Below are positions 10,052-36,039 of a stretch of DNA of 37,029 nucleotides, in pieces. The position numbers were made by a program, and so were the translations under genes. The notes under the pieces are model-generated. The model searched no databases. It was not told the origin of the DNA and saw only the letters and a program-made list of their open reading frames with translations. The stretch spans positions 1-37,029 of IMG/VR virus record IMGVR_UViG_3300009481_000037; one strand, given 5' to 3'. The first letter of the stretch is position 1. Every line of letters begins with the position of its first letter. The DNA comes from a virus. Its lineage: Duplodnaviria; Caudoviricetes.

Positions 10052-10972
10052 CTATTCAGTCATACTTTTTCGTTTTGTATAAGCTGGTTTGTATTCTTCA
10101 AATGGGACACTATGAAAAATTGCCCTATGATTTACCCATCTTTGAAAGGCATTCTGGTAATAATCACTCTTGTCATATGCCATAACGAACGGATCTACCT
10201 CCCAAGACTTTAATGTTTCTACCCTTTCCCTATCTTCTTCCGGGGTTGAATTGAAGCCTATTAAAACAAAAAACTGCATCTGCCATGGCTTAATGCCAAC
10301 ATCAATACATCTTTTAAACCCGCGTTCTATTAACTTTTTATCTTTGAAAATGTCCCATGCGAACGTTACCTGCGGATATTTGAATTGAAGATTAAAAAAT
10401 TTAACCTTTGCCAATGCATTAGCTTGGGTTTCAGTAATTGTCCTTATGTTCAAACCCTGGCTAAAACATACTTTAATCTTGCGATCCGCTAATTCAGAAA
10501 ATACGTCAAGGCAATCTGGATGCCCTAGAAAATCATCATCAAGCAATACCAATCTATCTTCCCCTTTGGGGTTACTAAGCAACTCCCTAATACTTAGATT
10601 GACTCTTGGCTTCCCATCCTTTTGAGGCACGACGCAAAACTCACAAGAAAGCCTACAACCTCTTTCACTAAAGCCTATATGGTTCTTGTAATCTGGATAC
10701 AAAAACCACGCCTGATTGTAATTTGCACTATTCATTTCTTCTGGCAATTTGCTATCCCAGGCAAACCCAGTTCCCCCTCGTATTACATAATCTGGCAGAT
10801 CATAACAATCAGTAAATCCAAATATCTTGCTTGCATAAACTTTGTCATATGGGAACAAAGGACCTGTCCAATGCTCTACATCATCCCCAAGCGCCTTGTG
10901 ATAAGCGGCAATCTGCATCAAAGCGAGGTTGGGCAGTTTGCCATCCATATGTACTAAGCCTATTTTTTTCAT
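10052..10972 (-). CDS. Radical SAM protein with a small N-terminal Rossmann-like domain
   Basis: CxxxCxxC motif (RGCRLSCEFCVVP), LLDDDF, FSQGLNIR; N-terminal PNLALMQIAAYHK..GD.V and GGTG. Start placed at ATG 10972 (ATGA overlap with the upstream stop). Confidence 0.85.
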   Translation of the reverse strand: MKKIGLVHMDGKLPNLALMQIAAYHKALGDDVEHWTGPLFPYDKVYASKIFGFTDCYDLPDYVIRGGTGFAWDSKLPEEMNSANYNQAWFLYPDYKNHIGFSERGCRLSCEFCVVPQKDGKPRVNLSIRELLSNPKGEDRLVLLDDDFLGHPDCLDVFSELADRKIKVCFSQGLNIRTITETQANALAKVKFFNLQFKYPQVTFAWDIFKDKKLIERGFKRCIDVGIKPWQMQFFVLIGFNSTPEEDRERVETLKSWEVDPFVMAYDKSDYYQNAFQRWVNHRAIFHSVPFEEYKPAYTKRKSMTE

Positions 10973-11151
10973 TCCTGTTTGCCCCTCTTTTGCCCTAACC
11001 ACTTATCACAGGTTTCACAAAAATACATTACCCTTCTGCGAGTTTTAACCTTTTTTACTTCATGTCCCTTGTGTTCTTTTTTTAATATGACTTTAATTGG
11101 TTTATTTGGTGTGTAAACTAAAGGGTGATTGCCTAAAATGTTTTCTTTCAT
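10969..11151 (-). CDS. Small hypothetical protein with H-x2-H and CxxC (possible Zn ribbon)
   Basis: MKENILG...HKGH...YFCETCDKW; ATGA overlaps at both ends. Confidence 0.6.
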   Translation of the reverse strand: MKENILGNHPLVYTPNKPIKVILKKEHKGHEVKKVKTRRRVMYFCETCDKWLGQKRGKQE

Positions 11152-11531
11152 TTTCCTTCTACCATCCTTTCCCACAAGACCCGGAAAGCAATAGCTCCAG
11201 TAAGCGGGACGACTCCGTTACCCAGGCATTGTAATCTTTCATTTCTATCTTCTTGACACTCGACCAACCAATCGGATGCCCCATCAACCACTCGACGAAT
11301 CTGGGGTTCAGCCGTTTCTTTTCCTTTGGCGTTTCCCCCATCATTTTCCTGCTGAGATCCGCATTCGTTAGCGTTGATCTGATTTTCTCTTGGTTCGCTA
11401 CATCCCTCCCCGCTACCTGATCTAATGTTACCGGGGTAGCCCACCGCTGGGGCAAGGTCGGGTCGTTCGGTAAGGATTGTTTCCCAATGCTTTCTTTCAT
11501 TTGGTCCTGGGGGCCAATAGGGGATTCGCAT
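11148..11531 (-). CDS. C5-cytosine MTase C-terminal polypeptide (motif X)
   Basis: EPQIRRVVDG...RNERLQCLGNGVVP; own RBS AAGGAG-8 nt-ATG; same frame as the N-terminal part at 11967-12512. Confidence 0.75.
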   Translation of the reverse strand: MRIPYWPPGPNERKHWETILTERPDLAPAVGYPGNIRSGSGEGCSEPRENQINANECGSQQENDGGNAKGKETAEPQIRRVVDGASDWLVECQEDRNERLQCLGNGVVPLTGAIAFRVLWERMVEGK

Positions 11532-12514
11532 GATTCAAACTCCTTTGCTTGATGGGTTAGCATTCTTTGTGATTGTGGACAGGCGGCATCTTCCCTAGCC
11601 GCCGGGGTAAGCCATTTTGCTCCTGGCCCAGTAGGCCAGGCATCTACAACGCTTGGCAGATCACTACCATTCCAGTTTTCTGATGCCCTGCGTTCTTGGA
11701 AATCTGACTTTACAGGGGTAGGCCATTTTTTGGTAGTTAGTGATAGATTTTCGCTTACTAATTCCTTCCCCTCAGATTTCCGCTTTTCCATTCGCGCGTT
11801 ATGGGATTCCACACTTTCATCCATCTCTAATGCCCGTGGAGTAGGCCAATTATTTGCTTCCGCTCTAGCAAGGGCAGCCCACTCCCCTGTCTTGTCTTCC
11901 AAGTTAAGCCCATGCGACCCCTTGCCATCATTTGAAATCCGTCTCCCAGTATCAGACATTCTAGCATTAGGATGTGGGGATTCCTGGGTTGTCGGGGTAG
12001 GCCAAGAGGAAAACTCTTTGGCGCTGATGGGAACTTCCCACTCCTGACGCTGAAAACATTCCCCATTGACAAGACAGCCCGATTTTGGAAAATTCTCCGA
12101 GAACAATGCCCATTGCCCCGTTATCCAGCAAGCCTGAGACGTTCTCCACGAAGACGTATCGGGGTCGTATTTCGCCAATAAGGCGGACGTATTCGTAGAA
12201 AAGCCCGGATCTGTTTCCTTTGACGATTCCTTCTTTTTTGCCTGCGACGGACAAGTCAGTACATGGAAATCCTCCAATGATTGTCGATACCTTTCCACGC
12301 CAAGGCTTGCCATCGAAGGATGTAATGTCGTCCCAAATAGGAGCTTCATCCAGGATCTTGTCTTCCATCTTTTTGCAGAGAGTGGCGACTGCATAGCTTT
12401 CCCGCTCGACATAAACCACAGTTTTACTGCCTGGGGCTGCCAATCTAACTGATTCGTCGAGTCCTCCAATTCCGCTAAAGAGGGAACAAATTGTTTGGGC
12501 AGGTATAACCACAT
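11159..12514 (-). CDS. C5-cytosine MTase alternative-frame (beta-type) polypeptide with WPTP repeats and motif IX
   Basis: 451-aa open frame overlapping both alpha parts; SSWRTSQ, FPKSG, repeated W[PLA]T[PG] units and RLNPRFVEWLMGHPIGWS. Confidence 0.75.
   Translation of the reverse strand: MWLYLPKQFVPSLAELEDSTNQLDWQPQAVKLWFMSSGKAMQSPLSAKRWKTRSWMKLLFGTTLHPSMASLGVERYRQSLEDFHVLTCPSQAKKKESSKETDPGFSTNTSALLAKYDPDTSSWRTSQACWITGQWALFSENFPKSGCLVNGECFQRQEWEVPISAKEFSSWPTPTTQESPHPNARMSDTGRRISNDGKGSHGLNLEDKTGEWAALARAEANNWPTPRALEMDESVESHNARMEKRKSEGKELVSENLSLTTKKWPTPVKSDFQERRASENWNGSDLPSVVDAWPTGPGAKWLTPAAREDAACPQSQRMLTHQAKEFESCESPIGPQDQMKESIGKQSLPNDPTLPQRWATPVTLDQVAGRDVANQEKIRSTLTNADLSRKMMGETPKEKKRLNPRFVEWLMGHPIGWSSVKKIEMKDYNAWVTESSRLLELLLSGSCGKGW
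11967..12512 (-). CDS. C5-cytosine DNA methyltransferase N-terminal catalytic polypeptide (motifs I-VIII)
   Basis: SLFSGIGG (I), DI (III), GGFPCTDLS (IV), ENV (VI), HQRQRVF (VIII). Confidence 0.9.
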   Translation of the reverse strand: MVIPAQTICSLFSGIGGLDESVRLAAPGSKTVVYVERESYAVATLCKKMEDKILDEAPIWDDITSFDGKPWRGKVSTIIGGFPCTDLSVAGKKEGIVKGNRSGLFYEYVRLIGEIRPRYVFVENVSGLLDNGAMGIVLGEFSKIGLSCQWGMFSASGVGSSHQRQRVFLLAYPDNPGIPTS

Positions 12515-12516
12515 TC

Positions 12517-12897
12517 TTAGTCTCCTATTTCAAGTTGAAGATATTTTTCTATGGCAGATTTTGCCTGTTCAAAACCATAACAAACGCAAGTTTCATAACC
12601 TTCCACCTTTAAACTAGCTAGCCACCAGTTTTGACTTGCTGTTGGCTTGTTCTTCCCATGTTTAAGTTCCAGAAACAAACCATGTTTGCCATTTTTCGGA
12701 ACCGCAAGGAAACAATCCGGCACCCCGGCTTTGACTCCGCCGGATTTAAGTTTAGCCCCAACTGCCTTATGCCTATGACCCCCATTAGGTATTGCAAACA
12801 AAAGACTTAAATGTAAGTGCAGACGTTCCTTTTCTTTCGCCCAGTTGAACAATTTTACCTGTTCAATATGTTCGTAATCATTCCTTTGCCTTCGCAT
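12517..12897 (-). CDS. VRR-NUC domain nuclease
   Basis: EH.EQ, FAIPNGG.R, GVKAGVPD, LFLELK and Q..W motifs (PD-(D/E)xK fold). Confidence 0.88.
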   Translation of the reverse strand: MRRQRNDYEHIEQVKLFNWAKEKERLHLHLSLLFAIPNGGHRHKAVGAKLKSGGVKAGVPDCFLAVPKNGKHGLFLELKHGKNKPTASQNWWLASLKVEGYETCVCYGFEQAKSAIEKYLQLEIGD

Positions 12898-17129: not shown

Positions 17130-17222
17130 TTAATCATCATTAACTACTGAGCCTATCAAGGCAATTATTAAAGCCAAATTCCATCCACAATATGCCATCC
17201 AAAAAAAATCTACCCAGGTCAT
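17130..17222 (-). CDS. 30-aa single-TM peptide MTWVDFFWMAYCGWNLALIIALIGSVVNDD
   Basis: Hand-translated; ATGA overlap with the upstream gene; fills the gap before erf. Confidence 0.5.
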   Translation of the reverse strand: MTWVDFFWMAYCGWNLALIIALIGSVVNDD

Positions 17223-17956
17223 AGCCATCTCTCCCATCTAATTTTTGGGCTAGGCTTGGACTTTGCATTAATGGCAGCTTGATTCTTTGATTTCCAAACC
17301 CTCGCGCGTTTTTGTCTTAAAGTAATTTTAAAATTCGCAGCCTTATAATAAATTCCGCTTTCATCAGCCCTAGTATATGTAATAATCCTTTTATATCCCA
17401 TTTCCCGCGCCTTCTTGCAAACCGCCCCTACCAACATTGAAGGAATGGGGGAAGCATGTATTGGGTTTTTCGTTGCCAATTCATAGTCGAATTCATCAAA
17501 ATCTTCTTCACCAACAAAGCAAATCCGAGTGATTTCTAGCGTCTTGCCATCGTCTAAATGTCGGTTGATTGGTCGCCCGCATACAGCTATACCATTCAAT
17601 ACCCTATCTGGTTTGACTTCTACGATAAGCTGTCTAAGATCACCATTGATATGGACGTCTAGAACGCGTTGATCTAATTTTGCACTATAAAAAAGGTTAT
17701 GGATGCCAGATTCCCAATCTTCATAGAATTCATCTTCATCCCAATCCCCTTCATAATCTCCCTTAATTGCAAAACGCCCCCGTATTTCATCTTCATTGTC
17801 AAAATCCCAATGATCCAATGATTCGTCTCTAAAAACAGCCAAGGTAAACTTGTGACCTTGTGGTTTGATATTGTGCTTGTGAAACTTATCTACAAGTTCC
17901 TGCGCTTTTCTTAATGGGTATTCTACTATTTCTATATTATTTGTAAGTAAAGTCAT
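17219..17956 (-). CDS. XF1762-family / Mom-like GNAT-fold protein with an acidic insertion
   Basis: FHKH...P.GHKF, G.A..GRP..R.LDDG.TLEITR.C and GYKRIITYT...ESG...KAA.F motifs. Confidence 0.75.
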   Translation of the reverse strand: MTLLTNNIEIVEYPLRKAQELVDKFHKHNIKPQGHKFTLAVFRDESLDHWDFDNEDEIRGRFAIKGDYEGDWDEDEFYEDWESGIHNLFYSAKLDQRVLDVHINGDLRQLIVEVKPDRVLNGIAVCGRPINRHLDDGKTLEITRICFVGEEDFDEFDYELATKNPIHASPIPSMLVGAVCKKAREMGYKRIITYTRADESGIYYKAANFKITLRQKRARVWKSKNQAAINAKSKPSPKIRWERWL

Positions 17957-25056: not shown

Positions 25057-28000
25057 TTATTCCTTAGAATACCCAAAAAGTGGGGCTGTTGGAATGTCTG
25101 TCTTCCCCGCCTGTAAATCCATAAAACCCGTTAGCGTTTTATCAATTTGCCCCGCGGGATAGTGAAATAGAATCCCCCCGGTTCGATTTAATGCCCTTAT
25201 TGTTTTTTTAACATCTATATCTTCTTTCTGTAATTGCTGTGATAATCTCGCGGCATCTGAAAAAAACCGCGTTCCTGCTGGCCCTTGGTAGCCAAAGAAA
25301 CCTTGCCCAAGTGAACTCAATTCACGGACTCCATATAACCCTCCAACAAGATAGCTCCAATGTTCTTTCGCTAACTTCCCGCCTACGCATGCCATATCTG
25401 TCCCAAAATCACACTCCCCTTTTAAAAAGGCCTCTCTCGCATACCAAGTTAATACTATTGGTATTGTATAAAGCATTAGCAGATCTACCCCTAACCGCCC
25501 TACGGCAAAGGGGTCTCGAACTACTTGAGTAGCTAATGAAACAGGGCCGGTTACCTTGGCTTTTTTTAATGAATCTAGGGTTAAATTATAGGTAACCTGG
25601 AAATAAGACATGAAATTAGTAAATAACTTTTTGATAGGACTGCCCCGCTGTACTTGTGCTAAATCCTTTATATGCCCAGAACCCTGGGAATCAATGACAG
25701 CTTGATCTGCCAATGCAATCGCCGTTTCATAGTCTAGGCCACTAGCTAATGCCTTTTCTTTTGCGCCAAACCATACCGGGGTATCTGCCATCAACTGGGC
25801 TTTAGCCATTACATAAAAATATGTTTCTGACATACTTTCTATAGGGAGCCCTATTTTTTTAAATAATTGCCTCTGCCCCTGGGACCAGAAGCCTTGCTTG
25901 AGAACCTTGTTTCTAATTTCACTAACTTCCCTGTTTAAGGTTTTAGCCCGGAGCCTCATAAATGAACTATCTGCATACATTTCCTTGACAGCGCTTTCCA
26001 TCCCTACAGCCCCTCTGCCATAACGAAGTAGCCCTTTCATTACCCATAACGGGCCCACCTTCGCAATCCCCTGGGTAATACCAAATGGTTGAAGTAACGC
26101 AGTTCCAAGGTTCCACCCCATAGCAGAAATAGAAACCCCCGTTCTAAGATAATTGAACGCCTTTTCATGCCATTGAACGCCCTGGGTTTCCCCTACGGCT
26201 ATATCTCTTAATGTATTTTTTATTACCCCTAGCCTTTCCCCACCCATATATTTTTGGATTACAGCAGGTAGTGAAAAGTTAGGACCTAAATCTGATTTGT
26301 GGTTTATTAGTTTATTTGTATTTACGAGAAATTCATGCCATGCGAGATCATGGACAACCTGCTCAACATGCTCAAAAATAACGCCAAAATCCAAGCGAAT
26401 CGGCTTTTGCCCAGCAGCATCCATCCTGGCCTTGGTATGCCCTCTCTTGGTAGTTGCTCTGCCAATCGCCCCTTTTCTTGCCAAATCATAAAGTTCCGCT
26501 TCTTGTTGAGCGCCTGCTTCTTGGCTCAAGTCCTTGTCAAAAGTTATAGGGAAATAGCCTCCGCGCAGCTGACCGAATGGGGTCATTACTGGCAAGGCTT
26601 CAACTTTTTCCGGGGCTACACCAGTAATTCGCTTTTCCTTCGCTTCAATTTCGTCCCAATAGCTATCTATAAAATCCCATACCCCTTGCACAAATTTCCA
26701 ATCACGAGCATCTAGCCCTTCCAAAACAATATCTACATGTTCATCTTTCCATCCAAACCCATCACGGACCCGGTTCCTATTATCCGCATTCCCCCAATTT
26801 AGGGCTACCATGATTCGTTCCATTTTGCTTATATCTACCCCCATGCCACCTTCTAAATCTGGGATGTTTGGAATATGCTTTCTTGCATAAAGCCTTTGGT
26901 TCGGGAGCATATTGTCCAGGGTTTCCGATGTAAGATAAGCAAATTCCGTAGCCTTGTATGCATTAAACAATTCCCCAAGGGTCACGGTCGCCTCTTCTTT
27001 TCTGTTGGCTTCCCAATCAGCACGATCATTCATCGGCCTAGTAATATATTTGAAGAAAGGCCCATTTTGCTCAAAACCATCTATTTCATGCCCGGTATTT
27101 GCCATCTTGCGATGTTCTGAAAAATATCCTAACTTTACTTTCCCCGGCTGATCTTGTGGTAAATTCCTAGATAGCTTTTTGATTTCTTTCTTGCTTTTCC
27201 TTTTCTGGTTATGCTTTTTGACTGAATCCCCAATTTCAATAGCCGCCGTTTCTACGCTTGCTTTTTCTTCTGCTAAAATTAGCCTGGTTTCATTTGATCC
27301 TAGATGATCTATGTTCTGGATAGCATCATTTAAACCACGGAGTTCTTCCATTGCAATAGTTCTATAATGCACTCGCTTTGTTTCATCTTGAAGGTTCGCT
27401 GGTATAACCGGGGTATTCCCCTTCGCTTCTTCTGCGGCTATCCACTTGGAAAGAATTTGCTGTTGTTCTATTTCCTTGTTAGTAGCACTTTTTCTAAGAT
27501 CATACCGATTCAGCATTCGATCTATTTGGGCAGACGCATCAAACCCAATGCGTTTTCTCGCGGATTTACCATCCAGCCTATCAAAATACCTTAGAACACG
27601 ATCTACTTCGCTAAGTGCCTGGGTTGCTTCCCTAGCAAAATAAAAATTTAAAATAGCCGCTCTTTTGTGATCGGCTGCTAAATTAAGATCCCCTTTGCCT
27701 ATAGCCCTTTCCGCATTGCGGTTAGCCCGTCGTTCCGCCGCCATATAGTCATTTGGGCGAATGTCCATAATTCTCGTGCCGGCAATCTTGTCTTTTGCGT
27801 ATTTTCTAGCAGATGCTGCTAAAACATTTCTAGCACCTACTTTTTTAGCCAAGACCTTCATTTCGGTATGCAGGACTCTAGCCCTCTGTTCCCCATGTAG
27901 GGCTTCTGTGATTGCGCGTGTCTTGGCTTCTTGGGAATTCATATCCCCAAATACTTCCAACATTTTCGCATCTGTTTCTTCTTCTACTACAACTCTCATA

Positions 28001-31000
28001 TCCGGGGCGGCTACCAACTCCTGTATCATTTGGTCCCCCGAACTATACCCCAGGCCTCGCGCTATATGATCTGGGTTCCCGCCATGATCTTGGTCTGTCA
28101 CCATTGCATACCTGCCTTTAAGCGGCAGTTGCTTCCATAATGCATCCTCCCCATTCCCATATTCTTCAATCAACGCCTGAAGTGATAATTTCCCCCCGGA
28201 TTCGTTGTCAATATGAACAAGCCCTTCTTCTTCTGCCAAGAAGTTTTCATATGCTTCCGCAACATCCCATTCATCATTTTTAATAGAAACGCGCTTATTA
28301 CCATTCAATTCATCTAGGAACCTATCTTCTAGATCCGTTGGGTCATATTTATCATTTTCATCTAACGGGAGATAACCATATCCCTCTTGAGACAACAAGA
28401 CCCCCATATCATCAATGCTTTTGGGTCTCTTTTCTTTAGGCTTGCTAGGATCATCTTTCTTCCATACTGGGCGAGCAGCCCCAACCCCGGAACTTAACTT
28501 TGTCTGCGGGTCAATGCCCCAGGTGGCCACTACTTCATCCTTATTTAGCCCCCCTAGTTTGGCAATCGCCGTAAACAATGAATCTCGGGTCGGGTCTACA
28601 ACATTAGGATTAATCTTTACCTTTGGACGTTTTTGTACCGGGGTACGCAAAAACTGCTTTGCCTTGTAAACTCTACGGTTAGCAACTTCCAACGTCGCTT
28701 CTTTTTTTAGTTCCGCCCTTCTTTCCCTTTGCGTTCTTTGGATATTTCTCAATACCCGCCCGCGTGCGCCTTCCATATATTTCATATCACGGAGCGCCCT
28801 GGCCTGCAGCATTTCGTCAGCTTCTTCTTCTTCGTCTACAATTTTAGCCTTATAGTCCACCCATTCTTCTTGGGTCATCCCGGCAGATTCCCTAGATTCC
28901 CATAATGGCTTAAAGCCTTCCGATTCTCTTGTTAATCTAATTTCTTCATCACTGGCAAGCATGCGATCAAATACGCCACGAACATCATCGCTTAGATCAA
29001 CTTGGAGGCTTGTTAAGTTTTTATATAAAGCAACAAGCCAGCTTTTAAAGCGGCGGAACATATTTGTCAGATCCGCTGATGGAGCTCTGCCTTCAAAAAG
29101 ATATGCTTCAAACGCCCTTGCAACGCGTTCATGCCCTTCCCGGCGGGCTTCCAGGCTCATAGAATTCCATTTATTAATATCTTCTACGCCAACAAACTTT
29201 AACAGCGTATTCATGTCATCCTTGATTTCCTGTGGGGAATCAGCCTGGTTTGCTAAATGCCGGGTTACTTCAAAAAAGAAATGCCCTGATTCATGGAGAA
29301 ATGTTGATAAATCAGCACTTTTAAATAAATTAATCGCGCTTTCTGTTTTAGTAATATCTTCCGCGAATTGAAAAGAACCCCTTGCTTCCCTTTGTTTTTT
29401 CTGGAAAACGGCTAAACTGGGGCGGGTTTTATTAAATGCTCTTTTCAATGGGGCAACATCAAACCCTGGTTGTCTCCCTGCATCATATGAGTCCGGGGCA
29501 GGATCTTCATATTCCATGGTTATCTTTTCCCCGGTAATACTCTTAACCATCTTGGCCGCTACATCAGGAACTAGGCGGTCATAGAAATCGACCATGCCCT
29601 TATCACTAATCTCTACATTGCCAGTATCAATAGAATGAGTCCCGTCTTTAATAGGTTCTTCAAGTAAAGTTCGTGCTACGTCTTTACCTACCATGGCGGG
29701 CAGATTCTTTTGTTCTACCTTGCCCACATCTGTCCAATGATCGCCAAGCCTGTTTGTACCCACGAAATGTTCCGCTCTTACAACAGAAAGTTGCTTGATC
29801 GCAGGGTTGTATTTTATCCTTGCGACGGTACTGACAAGTGAAGATTTATACCGTTCTGACTGCTGTGATCCTGAAGTCCACTCTACCCGGTCAAAGTCAT
29901 TCTCTACTGCGTAGGTAATAATCTTTTTCATAGCCAGCCCAACGTATGCGCTTTGGCTGTCAGTAAACGGAACCTGTACTGGTGTTGTTTTTCCACGGAC
30001 AGCACTTTCTAGATCCGATTGTATTTCATCTATAAATAGGATTTTCTTGCCATCTACTTCCCTAGTCTGTTTTCTTATCCATGTAATAATATTTGCATGC
30101 CCAGGGAAAACATGGGACTCAAATGCTCTTGTAGGGCGTGGCCCATTCTTGTAAATCTGCTGGATTCTTAGTCTATTTTTATCAAAATACCTTTCTTCTT
30201 CTTTCGTAAAAACATCCTTTGCATCTTTATGTCCCGGTAGAAATTTAAGATTTTTGTCTTGGACGTATGACTGCCATGTAGGAAAACGCAAAAGATCATT
30301 GTATCCAGGTTGGTAATCTCGCGTTCCATAAATATGAATTGCATGGTTCCATAACTTTTGTACTACATTAGTTTCCAATTCTAATTTTGGGGCAGCCCTT
30401 GGCGGAAACTTGAGCAAAATACTACTTTCATCTTCTCCACCGGGAAATGTGTAGTCAGTAAGGTCAGTGCCGATTTCAGAAAATGATTCAGGGGTTTGCA
30501 GGTCTTCAAGTTCAGCCCGGGCGTTTTCCCATGCCCTATTGCTTAGTATTTCATTCATTGGATCATTTGAATCATAAACTTTTTTTTCTATTTCTTCCCG
30601 ATGTTTGTCTTCTATGCGCTTTCTAGTAACTTCTACTGGTTCCCCTGTGATGCTATTCCCATCCGCATCCTTCTTTGCTAAACGGAATATTTCATCCTGA
30701 ACCAACATATCAAGACCTGCCTCTACCTCTCGTTTTAATAAATCATCAAAATACTGTTCTGCCCGGTCATGGAGTTCATTTTCATAGTCCTGGTTATTTA
30801 ATTCAACAAAGTCATCATTGGCCCCTATCATGCTACCAATTTCTACGGTTTCGATGCTTATGCCATTATTGAAAAGGAAATTGCTAATTTCGGATTTGGT
30901 GATCTTGTATCCTTTGCCAGCTTTAACCTGGGCTAATTGATCTTGAAGTCTAGAAATATCAGCATCTACCAAATTATAAGAATCGTCCCCTTTTATATAG

Positions 31001-34000
31001 GCATCTCGTTTCTTAACCCGCCTTTCAATCGCATCTTCTAAATCTAGGATTTGTGCTTCTTGCGTTTTCGTATCCAGCCATTCAAATATGCCAGTCCATT
31101 CTAATTCCTGTTGTTTAACCCCAAGTTTCTTGATGACTTGCTTCCAGCCCTTGGATGTTTTAGGTTGGGCTTTGCTATCTGGGAGTGCATCAAAGGATTC
31201 TGCCAATTTAGAATAATACCAGTCTGGCTTGGCATTCGCCTGGTCCACCCTATCTTGGAATAAAGTAAATCCTTCTTTTTGGACCCTTTCTCTTAGTTCC
31301 TGGGTAATGGGGATGATATGGTAACCTTCATCCTCAAAGCCCCCTTCTTCCTTCATTGGGTAGCCATCAATATGCATATGAGTTGCTACTTGCTTAGTTA
31401 GCTTCTTCATAATTGAAGGCATTTTTTTATCGTACTGGTTTTGATATAAGGTTCGGTATCTATCACTCCATCTATCAACCAATGTCTCAGAGTTAGACCA
31501 GGCTATAGACCCATACCCACCATCTACCGCATCAACGATTGCCCTTTTCAAACCAAGCGAAAGCCAAGAATCTCCCTTGAATGGAACATCAGGAACGCCC
31601 TTTTCTTCGGCAGCTATTTGTCTTTTTAGCGTTTCTTCTTCGGCGATGTAATTTTGCAGTTGTTCAATTTCTTCTTCACTAAATTGATCTTTAATTATCT
31701 TTTCAGTAATATCCCATTTCCTTTTATAAACCGCACTTGAACCTACAAACCGCCCTGAATTTGTTAGCTTTGTATATCTATCCATCCATCTTTCAGGGAA
31801 ATCTTCTTTTATCTGGAATGAAGCTATTTCCGAAAAATCCCCAAAATCAAGTCCATACTTTTCCAGACCAACATCAAATATGATTTGCCCTTTAAATCGT
31901 TTTTCATCATATATTTGCTCTGTTTCAAACGCGCGTTGCAAGCGAGTAGTAATTTCCGTGCTTGCCAATAATTCCTGTGCTTTGGCTTCTTCTATTTCTT
32001 CCCTAGTCTTCCCGGTTCTATATCCTTTCTGCCGGCCATCTTGATGCCAATCAGATTGAAATTCTTCGATAAAGTAGGTTTTATCTAAATGAAAATATGT
32101 AACATCTTTAGGTTCTACTGGAACAACTCCAGAAGCTGGAACCTGTAAATAGGAGCGGAAATTTTGGCCCGCAGGGAGCAACATTCCTATTTTCCCAGAC
32201 TTCCCAACAACTTTGCCTTGGGGAACATTGCGAAGGTGATACCCATATTCCGCTCTGGCTATCTTTCTTCCATATTCCATTTTTGCTTTCATTGAATTAT
32301 CAGCACTAACCCCAATGCCTTTGGCTGTAGCTTCTAACTGCCCCTCATAATCATCAGAATAATCTTTGCCATCCTCATAAACGATAAATGGTTTTTCATA
32401 CCGCCGTCTCAAATCCCCAAAAGTTTCTTCTTTAATTTCAAAGCCAGGGGGGTAAGGCAAACTACTCTTGTCCCCCTTATCTGCCTTAATTGCTACAGCA
32501 TCATCAGGGGGCGGTTTTAAGATCTTACCTTTGCCCATAGAAGAACTTGGAGGTATTGTATAGATAGATTTCATCTGTGGAGAAATATCATCCGTGCCTT
32601 CCCCGGATAACATCTCTCTATCATCAACTCTTAGGAACGCAACAATATTCCTATCTGGAAAGTGGGCTTCTTCATAAAAATCTTCTTCTATATCTGGTAG
32701 GGTTAGCTTGACTTCACGGTAATTTTCCTTATCCCCATCCATGGTATAATCTTCCCACTTTTTGATCGTTTCATCTCCCGTCGGGGATATTAGATCTTGT
32801 TCTACGGCATAGTCCATTGCCTGAATTTTTGCTTCAGAAAGGGAATAGATTAAGTCACCTTCAACTATATTTGCAGGATTCTGCCAGCCCCCTCTACGAA
32901 TATCCCAACCCTGGGCATCATTGCCCATAAGGGATAACCCAATCGTATCGTCCATGGTTTCTACAATATAAACAGGATCTTGCATATACAATTCTCTTGC
33001 TCTAGCTTCTACCCCTTCTTCTATTTCTGACTCATAGTTTTCTACCATATATTCCCATATCTGCGCCTGGTCCTTATCCCTTTCTATATTTTCTGGGATG
33101 TTACGATCTTCTTCTTTCGCGAGATCCCATACAACCTTATCCATAATCCCGTTATAGTCTGCATCGTCAACCAAGTATTTCCATGCTTCCGGGTCATCCC
33201 ATATTCTTTCAGAAGTCCATGCAATTTCAGCATCTCCTTCTAAATTTTCATCTTCTGCTACAACTACTTCCAACTTGATTCCATTGTTCCTTGCGAAAGC
33301 AACAACCCTTTCTCTGCTAAACTTGGCTTTTGGGTTGCCAGTTAGGAATTCTTCAATCCCTGAAAAGTTGAGTTCTTCTTTCTTGATTCCTGGCATGGTT
33401 TTTAGCTTCGCCCAAATATCTTTCCCGTTTGCCTGACCTACCTTCGGGTAAGTATCCGGGTCTTTTTTCCATGCCGGGAGGTTCATATCTTCCAGTGCTT
33501 GCTCTAATGCGCTATATAACCCATCACGACGGGCAGCCTGTTCTAGAATGTTAGGACTATCAGTAGGGCTTACATTGAAGATAGATTTGCTTTGGTTCGG
33601 CTCAAAGGTAATAAACTGGTCTTCAATAAAGTAATCAGTCATTGCCTGGGTTTCACCAGGTTCCGGCTTTCTTAAAAAGGCTTCCCTCGCACCCTTAACA
33701 ATAATACCGTCATGGCCTAGCCGTTTTGCTACTTCTACAACATTGGCTATGTTCTTGTTAGACAAAGTATTGTCCTTGACATCTGCCATGGCTACACTAA
33801 TAGGATTATCAAAGTCTAGTATGAATGGGTTTTTAATATCTAGGAATACAGGAAGAACATTTTGCCCACTAGTCTTTTCTTCTACTGCGGCAAATTCTGA
33901 AAACCTAGAAGCTAGATCAGGAGTGCTTGCAAAGAAGAACCCAAGTTCTTTCCCCCCTTGCTTGCCTGTTATCTTGCCTTGTGTTGACTTGTCAAAGGAT

Positions 34001-36039
34001 TCAATGTTAGCCGTCGTCCCATGATAAACAACTCTTGGCTCCCCTTTTTCATCTGTGATTTTAGAATCTTTAAAGAATGCTTCAAACTCTGGAGTGCGTT
34101 TGACCGCTTCGGCAGCCTGTTCTAAAGTCTGGACTTCATCTGATATTTGGGATTCCCCGCGAATTCTTAGCGGGAATTTCTTGTAAACTTCTTCTGGGGT
34201 TTTCCCTAATTTCTTGGCGAGACTAGCAAACATAGCCTTATGCAGAGAGGCATAAGTGTCCGCGGTTTCATCATTAAACCTACCAGTTTCAATAAGTTGT
34301 TTCCTTACCCCATCAAAAACCTTTTCAGATGAAGCAATAAATTCCGTATTCTGTGCCTGTTCCCGCAGGATGCGTTCACCTTTTTCAGCTAGTTCTTCAA
34401 AGGCTTTTTTTTCTTCTTCTGCTAGAAATGCCGTCGTCCCATTTGGATCAAATTTTACATGAGGGCTAATCTTGCTATTGGCTACCACGTCCCCGGCGAT
34501 TTTGTCCGTATAAACGGAAAGAGGGATAACAATATCCCCTTCCCCTTCAAGGGCATCTTTAAACTGTTCTGTCGCCCCTATTTCTTCAACTAGCAGATCC
34601 ACATCATCCTGGTAGACTTCTTGCAGCTGTTTTGCATCAATATATACATTGTCAATGCTTGTCCCTTCGTGGACGCGTTTGACGAATTCCTTGTGCGTTT
34701 CTCCATCCCGCTGTTTGAGTTTTGACCCTTGGACATTTTCACTCAAACTATTCAAATATTCCTGGTTAGCCGTAGCCTGGTCTGCATCCCTTTTTTGGTT
34801 ATACATGGAAATAGTTGCCCCAGGAATAGCCAGAATAGTCATAGCTTTTAGGGTTTCTTTAAAGACTTCCCCAACCTGATGCTGTATTTCTGCCCCAGTA
34901 ATGCTTTCAAATTCTTTGTCTGATAAGGCTTTTCCTGTTTCTACCCCAGTTATAGCGATTAGTTCCTGCCCGACTTCCGTTGCCGTTTCCCCGGCTATAG
35001 TCTTGCCAAAAGTCTTAACCCCGGCTGCTATCTTACTTTTCTTCGCGGTTTCCTGTAATATTTTGCGTTTGACCCCGCTAAGAAATCTTTTTTTAATGAG
35101 ATCTTTAAAAGGGGAAGCGATTATCTTGGCCCCAGTAACTTCTAATAACCCGGCAAAATCCCCGGCAACCTCCCCTACATTGTTGGCTATATTCTTTTCA
35201 ACCCCCGCATCAACTAAATCCTGGGCGATAAGCCCTCCTTCTACCTGCGAAGATTGGCGATAAAGTTCTACCGCTGCCCCAACAGAAGCCGCTGTAGCAA
35301 CAACAGCCGGTGCCGCCGGGCCCGTGAGCGCAGCCCCAGTTGCCGCCGCCCCACCTGACAAGGCTCCCGCTGCTATAACTTGTGGGACCCCTTCTATAAA
35401 TGTGCCAATAGCCTTGGCGGCCGCTTCCACAAAACCCCCAGAGCCTCCATCTAGTTGCCTTAATTGATCTTGTATTTCCTTGATTCTATTTCTTAGTTCT
35501 TGTTTTTCGGGTTCCGTCAATTCATCTTCAAATATTTCCCCCATTAGCCTACGCCTAGCAAGACCGAGCTCTCTGGTTTTCATCCCCCTTTCTAGTCCGA
35601 CAGAAGCATCTCGATGCAATCCTTCAAAGTAGCCAAGGTTTTCAAAGTCATCATTCGCAAACATGGAAAGATTGGTTTCTAACGTCATTTCTTTCAGCTT
35701 GGGAGATTTATCCAGTATTTCCTTGTTTTTGTCTATCTCAACTGAACGCTCAATACCATCAACATCTTCTTCAACCAATTCTTCCATTAAACCCGTTGTT
35801 TCTGATAATTTGCGAACCTTGACCGCTTTATCCGGGTTTATAGTTTTAGCTTCTTCAAGAATATCCAGCAGCATCGCATCATCTTTTTTTTGATCAATTT
35901 CCGCTTGTTTCGCCGCGCCATTATCATCTGGGATTTCTATTTCAGTATCTTCTAAGGCTTTCCCCGCTTCTTCTAAAAGCGGACTCTGTAGTTGCTCTCT
36001 GCGTTTTTCAAATTCTAGGAAAGAATCAAGGCTATTCAT
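25057..36039 (-). CDS. Giant polyvalent internal virion/ejection protein (3660 aa): ART-PolyVal-like domain, duplicated E-x-QSD domain and zincin metallopeptidase
   Basis: VYHGT/GFFFA/GHDGI (ART-like); two copies of YS.L...G.K..EL...HF/VF...E[FI]QSD...PF; ADLSTFLHESGH...HE..A..FE.YL.EG (HExxH); long helical C-terminus; located just upstream of the tail fibre. Confidence 0.85.
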   Translation of the reverse strand: MNSLDSFLEFEKRREQLQSPLLEEAGKALEDTEIEIPDDNGAAKQAEIDQKKDDAMLLDILEEAKTINPDKAVKVRKLSETTGLMEELVEEDVDGIERSVEIDKNKEILDKSPKLKEMTLETNLSMFANDDFENLGYFEGLHRDASVGLERGMKTRELGLARRRLMGEIFEDELTEPEKQELRNRIKEIQDQLRQLDGGSGGFVEAAAKAIGTFIEGVPQVIAAGALSGGAAATGAALTGPAAPAVVATAASVGAAVELYRQSSQVEGGLIAQDLVDAGVEKNIANNVGEVAGDFAGLLEVTGAKIIASPFKDLIKKRFLSGVKRKILQETAKKSKIAAGVKTFGKTIAGETATEVGQELIAITGVETGKALSDKEFESITGAEIQHQVGEVFKETLKAMTILAIPGATISMYNQKRDADQATANQEYLNSLSENVQGSKLKQRDGETHKEFVKRVHEGTSIDNVYIDAKQLQEVYQDDVDLLVEEIGATEQFKDALEGEGDIVIPLSVYTDKIAGDVVANSKISPHVKFDPNGTTAFLAEEEKKAFEELAEKGERILREQAQNTEFIASSEKVFDGVRKQLIETGRFNDETADTYASLHKAMFASLAKKLGKTPEEVYKKFPLRIRGESQISDEVQTLEQAAEAVKRTPEFEAFFKDSKITDEKGEPRVVYHGTTANIESFDKSTQGKITGKQGGKELGFFFASTPDLASRFSEFAAVEEKTSGQNVLPVFLDIKNPFILDFDNPISVAMADVKDNTLSNKNIANVVEVAKRLGHDGIIVKGAREAFLRKPEPGETQAMTDYFIEDQFITFEPNQSKSIFNVSPTDSPNILEQAARRDGLYSALEQALEDMNLPAWKKDPDTYPKVGQANGKDIWAKLKTMPGIKKEELNFSGIEEFLTGNPKAKFSRERVVAFARNNGIKLEVVVAEDENLEGDAEIAWTSERIWDDPEAWKYLVDDADYNGIMDKVVWDLAKEEDRNIPENIERDKDQAQIWEYMVENYESEIEEGVEARARELYMQDPVYIVETMDDTIGLSLMGNDAQGWDIRRGGWQNPANIVEGDLIYSLSEAKIQAMDYAVEQDLISPTGDETIKKWEDYTMDGDKENYREVKLTLPDIEEDFYEEAHFPDRNIVAFLRVDDREMLSGEGTDDISPQMKSIYTIPPSSSMGKGKILKPPPDDAVAIKADKGDKSSLPYPPGFEIKEETFGDLRRRYEKPFIVYEDGKDYSDDYEGQLEATAKGIGVSADNSMKAKMEYGRKIARAEYGYHLRNVPQGKVVGKSGKIGMLLPAGQNFRSYLQVPASGVVPVEPKDVTYFHLDKTYFIEEFQSDWHQDGRQKGYRTGKTREEIEEAKAQELLASTEITTRLQRAFETEQIYDEKRFKGQIIFDVGLEKYGLDFGDFSEIASFQIKEDFPERWMDRYTKLTNSGRFVGSSAVYKRKWDITEKIIKDQFSEEEIEQLQNYIAEEETLKRQIAAEEKGVPDVPFKGDSWLSLGLKRAIVDAVDGGYGSIAWSNSETLVDRWSDRYRTLYQNQYDKKMPSIMKKLTKQVATHMHIDGYPMKEEGGFEDEGYHIIPITQELRERVQKEGFTLFQDRVDQANAKPDWYYSKLAESFDALPDSKAQPKTSKGWKQVIKKLGVKQQELEWTGIFEWLDTKTQEAQILDLEDAIERRVKKRDAYIKGDDSYNLVDADISRLQDQLAQVKAGKGYKITKSEISNFLFNNGISIETVEIGSMIGANDDFVELNNQDYENELHDRAEQYFDDLLKREVEAGLDMLVQDEIFRLAKKDADGNSITGEPVEVTRKRIEDKHREEIEKKVYDSNDPMNEILSNRAWENARAELEDLQTPESFSEIGTDLTDYTFPGGEDESSILLKFPPRAAPKLELETNVVQKLWNHAIHIYGTRDYQPGYNDLLRFPTWQSYVQDKNLKFLPGHKDAKDVFTKEEERYFDKNRLRIQQIYKNGPRPTRAFESHVFPGHANIITWIRKQTREVDGKKILFIDEIQSDLESAVRGKTTPVQVPFTDSQSAYVGLAMKKIITYAVENDFDRVEWTSGSQQSERYKSSLVSTVARIKYNPAIKQLSVVRAEHFVGTNRLGDHWTDVGKVEQKNLPAMVGKDVARTLLEEPIKDGTHSIDTGNVEISDKGMVDFYDRLVPDVAAKMVKSITGEKITMEYEDPAPDSYDAGRQPGFDVAPLKRAFNKTRPSLAVFQKKQREARGSFQFAEDITKTESAINLFKSADLSTFLHESGHFFFEVTRHLANQADSPQEIKDDMNTLLKFVGVEDINKWNSMSLEARREGHERVARAFEAYLFEGRAPSADLTNMFRRFKSWLVALYKNLTSLQVDLSDDVRGVFDRMLASDEEIRLTRESEGFKPLWESRESAGMTQEEWVDYKAKIVDEEEEADEMLQARALRDMKYMEGARGRVLRNIQRTQRERRAELKKEATLEVANRRVYKAKQFLRTPVQKRPKVKINPNVVDPTRDSLFTAIAKLGGLNKDEVVATWGIDPQTKLSSGVGAARPVWKKDDPSKPKEKRPKSIDDMGVLLSQEGYGYLPLDENDKYDPTDLEDRFLDELNGNKRVSIKNDEWDVAEAYENFLAEEEGLVHIDNESGGKLSLQALIEEYGNGEDALWKQLPLKGRYAMVTDQDHGGNPDHIARGLGYSSGDQMIQELVAAPDMRVVVEEETDAKMLEVFGDMNSQEAKTRAITEALHGEQRARVLHTEMKVLAKKVGARNVLAASARKYAKDKIAGTRIMDIRPNDYMAAERRANRNAERAIGKGDLNLAADHKRAAILNFYFAREATQALSEVDRVLRYFDRLDGKSARKRIGFDASAQIDRMLNRYDLRKSATNKEIEQQQILSKWIAAEEAKGNTPVIPANLQDETKRVHYRTIAMEELRGLNDAIQNIDHLGSNETRLILAEEKASVETAAIEIGDSVKKHNQKRKSKKEIKKLSRNLPQDQPGKVKLGYFSEHRKMANTGHEIDGFEQNGPFFKYITRPMNDRADWEANRKEEATVTLGELFNAYKATEFAYLTSETLDNMLPNQRLYARKHIPNIPDLEGGMGVDISKMERIMVALNWGNADNRNRVRDGFGWKDEHVDIVLEGLDARDWKFVQGVWDFIDSYWDEIEAKEKRITGVAPEKVEALPVMTPFGQLRGGYFPITFDKDLSQEAGAQQEAELYDLARKGAIGRATTKRGHTKARMDAAGQKPIRLDFGVIFEHVEQVVHDLAWHEFLVNTNKLINHKSDLGPNFSLPAVIQKYMGGERLGVIKNTLRDIAVGETQGVQWHEKAFNYLRTGVSISAMGWNLGTALLQPFGITQGIAKVGPLWVMKGLLRYGRGAVGMESAVKEMYADSSFMRLRAKTLNREVSEIRNKVLKQGFWSQGQRQLFKKIGLPIESMSETYFYVMAKAQLMADTPVWFGAKEKALASGLDYETAIALADQAVIDSQGSGHIKDLAQVQRGSPIKKLFTNFMSYFQVTYNLTLDSLKKAKVTGPVSLATQVVRDPFAVGRLGVDLLMLYTIPIVLTWYAREAFLKGECDFGTDMACVGGKLAKEHWSYLVGGLYGVRELSSLGQGFFGYQGPAGTRFFSDAARLSQQLQKEDIDVKKTIRALNRTGGILFHYPAGQIDKTLTGFMDLQAGKTDIPTAPLFGYSKE

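Follow-up and report, generated by a model that had tools for sequence, protein, structure and literature searches.

A 1.37-kb stretch of marine phage DNA holds, on its minus strand, three overlapping open reading frames in two phases, here called alpha-N, beta and alpha-C. They lie in a window of 37,029 nucleotides (the whole stretch of DNA that was analysed), with the following features:

12522..12526, minus strand: Shine-Dalgarno-like AGGAG, recognised from the sequence and common to both starts in ATGTG
11967..12512, minus strand: alpha-N, 181 aa, motifs I-VIII, from GTG 12512 to TAA 11969-11967; Pfam PF00145, PHROG 363
12479, 12272, 12152 and 12029, minus strand: alpha-N motifs FSGIGG, GFPC, ENV and HxRxR, in that order
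11159..12514, minus strand: beta, 451 aa, +1 frame, from ATG 12514; a ~170-aa N-terminal part over alpha-N, then the module array and motif IX
11312..12004, minus strand: WxTP module array in beta; modules start at 12004, 11848, 11725, 11614 and 11443, with a WPTG remnant at 11638
11532..11966, minus strand: alpha-frame dead zone, 435 bp, 13 stops, coding for beta only
11540..11545, minus strand: AAGGAG, internal Shine-Dalgarno-like site of alpha-C, within beta codons K-E, duplex energy -8.2 kcal/mol
11148..11531, minus strand: alpha-C, 127 aa, from ATG 11531; WPPGP...RPDLAPA segment at 11516-11445, motif X (RLQCLGNGVVP) at 11237-11205
11279..11311, minus strand: motif IX (LNPRFVEWLMG), beta frame; the alpha-C frame is open across it

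Upstream of the AGGAG is a VRR-NUC gene with its stop at 12519-12517, and the ATGTGG start context is seen in most of the split loci listed. The alpha-N TAA is followed two codons later by an in-frame TAG, and between motifs VIII and X the alpha frame has 14 stops (the TAA and 13 more up to 11532). An alpha-frame TGA (11537-11535) falls between AAGGAG and ATG 11531, which are 8 nt apart, and the TGA of alpha-C (11150-11148) overlaps the ATG of a 60-aa ORF. Alpha-C also contains a low-information insert, namely the last beta module as read in the alpha frame. LNPRFVEWLMG, which we take to be motif IX after the label in the initial annotation of this DNA and the familiar C5-methyltransferase motifs, has the position between VIII and X in single-chain relatives. 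All coordinates given in that annotation, among them ATG 12514, GTG 12512, TAA 11967 and ATG 11531, proved correct.

Each of the three chains has a start codon and a Shine-Dalgarno-like site, the AGGAG being common to beta and alpha-N, and all three carry the PHROG label DNA methyltransferase. Beta matches PHROG 1008 'DNA methyltransferase' (E 1.2e-24; 354 homologues) and alpha-C matches PHROG 29583 (E 8.7e-07; 31 short homologues). Pfam and NCBIfam recognise alpha-N alone among the three, which aligns to positions 3-161 of 324, the first half, of the DNA_methylase model (PF00145; E 1.4e-33). No stable RNA structure was found at the starts or at the alpha-N stop (z -0.12 over the internal AAGGAG), and the locus gave no Rfam match and no excess of promoter-like sites.

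The surrounding genome looks like that of a podophage, with portal, GP7 capsid, Bbp16 and Bbp19 matches and a terminase, and it encodes a 3660-aa polyvalent protein with ART-PolyVal and LPD22 domains at 25057-36039. The DNA runs containing the window are marine and subsurface, and no RNA run was found among the 24 runs that contain it. A radical SAM gene (10052-11002) lies just downstream of the methyltransferase and a Mom-like gene at 17219-17956, and further DNA modification by these genes is possible. Three near-identical phages are without the stretch from the methyltransferase end to the radical SAM start, with loose ends at 11142. The window as a whole is poor in the words GGCC (118 vs 243 expected), GCGC, CCCGGG and GATATC, which is what restriction avoidance would produce, although word counts name no target.

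The stops in the alpha frame are confined to the part between alpha-N and alpha-C. We compared each overlap with the stop number expected from synonymous resampling of one frame (2000 resamples). The alpha frame has no stop in the alpha-C overlap where 8.2 are expected, and the beta frame none over alpha-N where 10.8 are expected, with 0/2000 resamples stop-free in either case, whereas the 13 alpha-frame stops of the dead zone compare with 13.6 expected by resampling. The same pattern is seen across loci, where the 525 codons of the modules that fall inside alpha-C (13 distinct, of about five kinds) contain 0 alpha-frame stops and 83/86 dead-zone modules contain stops (270 in 3177 codons); the motif IX region has 0 alpha-frame stops in 30 blocks. 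For the PPGP block, base entropy at the three alpha codon positions is 0.58/0.43/1.06; the values are 0.58/0.35/0.96 for motif X (34 sequences in each of these two) and 1.00/0.48/0.36 for motif IX (30 sequences). It is therefore the alpha third positions that vary in PPGP and motif X, and the third positions of beta in motif IX, the pattern predicted when selection acts on each frame at the motif it encodes. This distribution of stops and substitutions indicates that alpha-C is under purifying selection as a protein.

Initiation signals for alpha-C were scored in 57 distinct contexts from 173 loci, after dropping duplicates, weak or missing alpha-C matches and anchors near contig ends. A start codon with a Shine-Dalgarno-like site of -3.5 kcal/mol or better, at most 30 codons before WPPGP, was present in 41/41 split contexts, 1/15 intact contexts and 22/124 dead-zone windows, although part of this signal could be a by-product, as the Shine-Dalgarno letters double as beta codons. 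The 41 include L142 and three loci of a second split lineage, both described below, and are related to one another, so that they do not count as 41 separate origins; a frameshifted locus, L033, was left out of the start counts. The starts fall into eight position/codon classes and come from different last modules. Where the RKDGK module supplies the start (6 contexts), it has Cys, which creates the ATG; in its remaining 4 contexts the residue is Ser.

To place the split among relatives, 331 loci were fetched, and L001-L172 with the window gave 136 distinct alpha-N segments, which reduced to 129 non-redundant rows at 97% identity. Thirty-one rows are split, 92 intact and 6 other, with the split loci being kin, such that these counts are not independent events. 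The intact two-frame relatives (92 rows) have the ATGTG double start, a beta with WPTP cassettes and motif IX, and an uninterrupted alpha, from which the clade of the window differs by its fixed split and internal start. In a quick tree, 30 split rows and the frameshifted L142 share one branch (SH-aLRT 93, branch unstarred), and L009 sits apart in a starred group with five intact rows; the starred branches of this tree force at least two changes. The layout is kept in 30 non-redundant relatives at a within-clade identity of 55-97% (median 68%), and these keep the catalytic PC, ENV and HxRxR, of which PC, ENV and RxR are invariant in 21 aligned clade members. In an ORF-independent check, motifs VIII and X were separated by a stop in 58/58 loci with the clade's motif X and an in-frame motif VIII, and no stop lay from PDLAPA to motif X in 65/65 loci (40 distinct), both counts taking in duplicates and the window's own contig. 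L040, the 66th locus whose motif X resembles that of the clade, has an intact alpha and lies outside the clade.

An additional search with alpha-N as query limited the bias of alpha-C-based searching. Its 159 loci comprised 71 two-frame intact, 6 split, 7 single-chain and 2 other, with 68 unclassified by the motif rules and 5 without motif VI. Six viral loci reach 57% identity or more. Five of them are split, all known from the earlier searches, and the sixth, L177, has an alpha frame open across the modules until a frameshift at a G-run. When a profile was searched against 1.84 billion representatives, the top six matches were short proteins and those below them mostly long ones; cultured phages and plasmids gave distant matches at best, or none. 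Based on the tree placement, the conserved stops and the alpha-N search, we conclude that the split is a derived, fixed trait of one clade. The initial annotation had named an intact alpha frame in close relatives, with stops unique to this DNA, as the mark of decay or error; instead, the homologue collection it had suggested revealed a conserved alpha split, with the start codon and Shine-Dalgarno-like site retained before alpha-C in all 41 split loci.

A second split lineage (L009, L011 and L012, the last at L012:2950-4440) lies outside the clade of the window. Its alpha-N stops 15 codons past motif VIII and its alpha-C restarts 25 codons before WPPGP behind a Shine-Dalgarno-like site, pointing to a probable second origin of the split. 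Other arrangements also occur in the wider family. In L142:280-1300 the frame shifts at motif VIII, which joins alpha-N to the modules and motif IX and leaves alpha-C separate; this fusion may be an assembly slip, since it is seen in one contig only and the close relative L143 has the usual split. L177, L188 and L033 switch frame at a G-run within the same module type in all three, which is possibly phase variation or a repeated assembly slip. Upstream in the single-chain loci L223, L254 and L274 the old beta frame is still open, which suggests that they arose from the two-frame form by secondary fusion. Serial forms (L080, L207) have motifs I-VIII in one ORF, and their other ORF is a beta that includes the modules and both IX and X. 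L302:2330-3320 has one late TAA, probably a lesion, in an alpha frame that is otherwise intact, and no restart is evident.

The beta array of the window consists of five modules and one remnant, and modules take the form W-P-T-P-x-A-x-D ... G-x-x-L. Sorting 273 modules gave 151 types at under 60% identity. In near-identical phages the module at 11848-12010 is replaced and modules are inserted near 11632 and 11725, at module borders, so that exchange proceeds as in-frame cassettes. Six single-chain relatives (L223, L226, L241, L254, L274 and L279) have WxTP modules in frame between VIII and IX, where the accessible text of PMC5944983 places the C5-methyltransferases' target recognition domain (TRD). 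The L223 single-chain model (pLDDT 84.6) matches M.HhaI at Z 24.5 (253 aligned, rmsd 3.1), and this fold match, together with the in-frame position in single-chain relatives, puts the modules in the TRD slot. The variable position between VIII and IX, the 151 types and the cassette exchange fit specificity units, and the WxTP modules are thus probably DNA-recognition units. The TL consensus with a PT(I/L/V) core, as given in the accessible part of PMC2413257, had 0 matches in beta, PT alone being common to the modules and the consensus. A profile of 100 modules run against solved structures returned no methyltransferase and 4 weak unrelated matches, and an AlphaFold model of beta alone (pLDDT 59.7) gave no PDB match by Foldseek and a best Z of 3.4 by VIA.

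That the split serves to allow long arrays was considered and rejected as unsupported by the module counts. Module number averages 4.3 in split loci (n=30) and 3.1 in intact loci (n=83), with overlapping ranges, and because of this overlap the array does not explain the split. The central 435 bp is free of alpha-frame constraint (13 stops vs 13.6 expected), as the initial annotation had proposed, but such release from dual coding is unneeded for a long variable region, because the intact relative L027 has 7 modules and five split loci have one-module arrays. The WxTP array had no place in the initial annotation, and it likely moves the recognition region from alpha, where it was assigned in M.EcoHK31I, to beta.

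Taken together, the three frames kept open are likely translated from separate starts into three proteins, which would assemble into one DNA cytosine-C5 methyltransferase, a reading to which we assign a probability of about 0.7. Co-folding the three chains with alpha-C as partner did not discriminate, scoring 0.87 against 0.76 for a control with beta replaced, and carries no weight for or against this reading. One alternative is recoding, in which alpha-C would be reached by a frameshift from beta or a hop from alpha-N, yielding fused chains and no third initiated protein. Shine-Dalgarno-like sites can stimulate frameshifts, and in the window the AAGGAG stands directly before TTTGA; frame-switch variants also exist in the wider family (the L142 fusion and the G-run switches of L177, L188 and L033). 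However, the start codon and Shine-Dalgarno-like site recur in 41/41 split loci in varied contexts, the alpha-N stop falls 14-33 codons past motif VIII with no fixed site in 37 loci (listed slippery patterns in 3/37), and Rfam returned no match. Relative to motif IX, the selected PPGP segment is upstream and in another frame, such that a single ribosome cannot make both IX and the whole of alpha-C. Because the alpha-N stop site is not fixed and the PPGP segment precedes motif IX in the other frame, recoding is disfavoured, and we consider it improbable. Even less credit is due to decay or assembly error, meaning a two-chain gene with a broken alpha and alpha-C as a leftover, even though one frame contains 14 stops, alpha is intact in most of the wider family (92/129 rows) and single lesions without restart exist (L302). 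The same stops are present in contigs of runs X2 and X3, from two other studies, which span 11000-12383 and 11000-12401 with one differing letter and no gap, so the stops do not come from misassembly. Decay is also at odds with the 30 relatives (55-97% identity) that keep the split and the catalytic residues, and with an alpha-C that is stop-free and selected. An intron spanning the dead zone was dropped, because removing the dead zone would also remove the modules of beta.

A different possibility accepts that three proteins assemble and holds that they have a single specificity, set by one module or by the alpha-C segment, or that they make another cytosine modification, possibly processed by the radical SAM neighbour at 10052-11002. 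The modules are without the TL consensus and without a methyltransferase match among solved structures, and for M.EcoHK31I the accessible text of PMC2836561 assigns the TRD to alpha. Against this, the modules lie in the VIII-IX variable region of single-chain relatives, show 151 types among 273 and are exchanged as in-frame cassettes, whereas the PPGP/PDLAPA segment of alpha-C, unlike the modules, is nearly constant. This possibility is unlikely, though it carries more weight than recoding or decay.

If three proteins are made, ribosomes at the common 5' site would pick either the ATG of beta or the GTG of alpha-N, and alpha-C would be initiated inside the beta gene. Motif X of alpha-C may then dock on alpha-N and complete the SAM site, while beta would contribute motif IX and DNA recognition. 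According to the available portions of PMC5944983 and PMC3404938, motif X belongs to the SAM site and C5-methyltransferase fragments can complement each other, although engineered splits of M.MpeI/M.SssI can fail, the Class J pairs being inactive (PMC5944983, same portion). The enzyme would methylate phage DNA, perhaps at several motifs, against host restriction. We put at roughly even odds that each module is one recognition unit, with the enzyme possibly marking several sites and thereby protecting the phage from host restriction. The split itself could have arisen from a two-chain ancestor whose alpha frame ran through the module array as a low-information linker. Once translation could begin internally, near the linker's end, the linker would become dispensable, and stops would then accumulate, entering with new modules as in a ratchet, after which any module landing in the last position must provide the start. 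In its fullest form, which we offer tentatively and at somewhat less than even odds, the proposal is a heterotrimeric multispecific methyltransferase encoded in one overlapping stretch, with a catalytic core, a motif X piece and a recognition chain of swappable cassettes whose last cassette is the ribosome entry for the third chain, and which would have evolved at least twice from two-chain ancestors.

An alpha/beta C5-methyltransferase, M.EcoHK31I, was reportedly described by Lee, Kam and Shaw in 1995. It recognises YGGCCR, and in the accessible text of PMC2836561 and PMC3404938 its motif IX is on a second chain from another frame, with I-VIII and X in the alpha frame; the present locus likewise has its motif IX chain in another frame of the same DNA. 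In those parts of the sources M.EcoHK31I has one alpha chain with I-VIII, a predicted TRD and X, and a small nested beta, whereas here alpha is two ORFs and a dead zone, with 14 stops between VIII and X and a split in 58/58 clade loci, and beta, which is larger than either alpha chain, begins 2 nt ahead of alpha and bears the module array. M.AquI (CYCGRG) resembles the locus in having a natural break in the variable region after VIII, with later motifs translated separately, but consists of two serial genes with IX and X in one chain (PMC3404938, accessible text), a pattern that was not found here, where IX and X are in different frames and chains. Since neither the one-alpha-chain feature nor the M.AquI pattern is present, we assign the locus to neither type; by its motif layout it is a variant of the M.EcoHK31I design and is predicted to work like it. 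The sequence motifs of PF00145 C5-methyltransferases are present across the three chains, with I-VIII in alpha-N, IX in beta and X in alpha-C, and relatives with IX and X in one chain model as the M.HhaI fold. Multispecific phage C5-methyltransferases, whose specificities have been tested, are single-chain enzymes with a TL motif. The present array resembles theirs in its tandem exchangeable units of ~30-50 aa between VIII and IX, each with a conserved Thr, and differs in that its units read WxTP, are on a separate chain and are candidate recognition units only. The several TRDs of such enzymes are attributed to Trautner et al. in the accessible parts of PMC2413257 and PMC2790894.

The natural split C5-methyltransferases named in the cited papers, as far as their accessible text goes, have two chains, and we found no three-chain C5-methyltransferase in the literature covered, which takes in few subscription papers. 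Judged from its conserved reading frames, the three-chain form is likely a step beyond the two-protein enzymes described so far. Such loci resemble pseudogenes during annotation, with alpha-N alone recognised by Pfam and NCBIfam. The single-, two-, three-chain and serial forms offer a natural series for studying the gain and loss of gene overlap, and the cassettes, more than 150 candidate recognition units carried by a detachable chain, could inform specificity rules and split-enzyme targeted methylation. A conserved three-chain form, if true, would mean that the SAM-binding domain can receive its motif X helix in trans.
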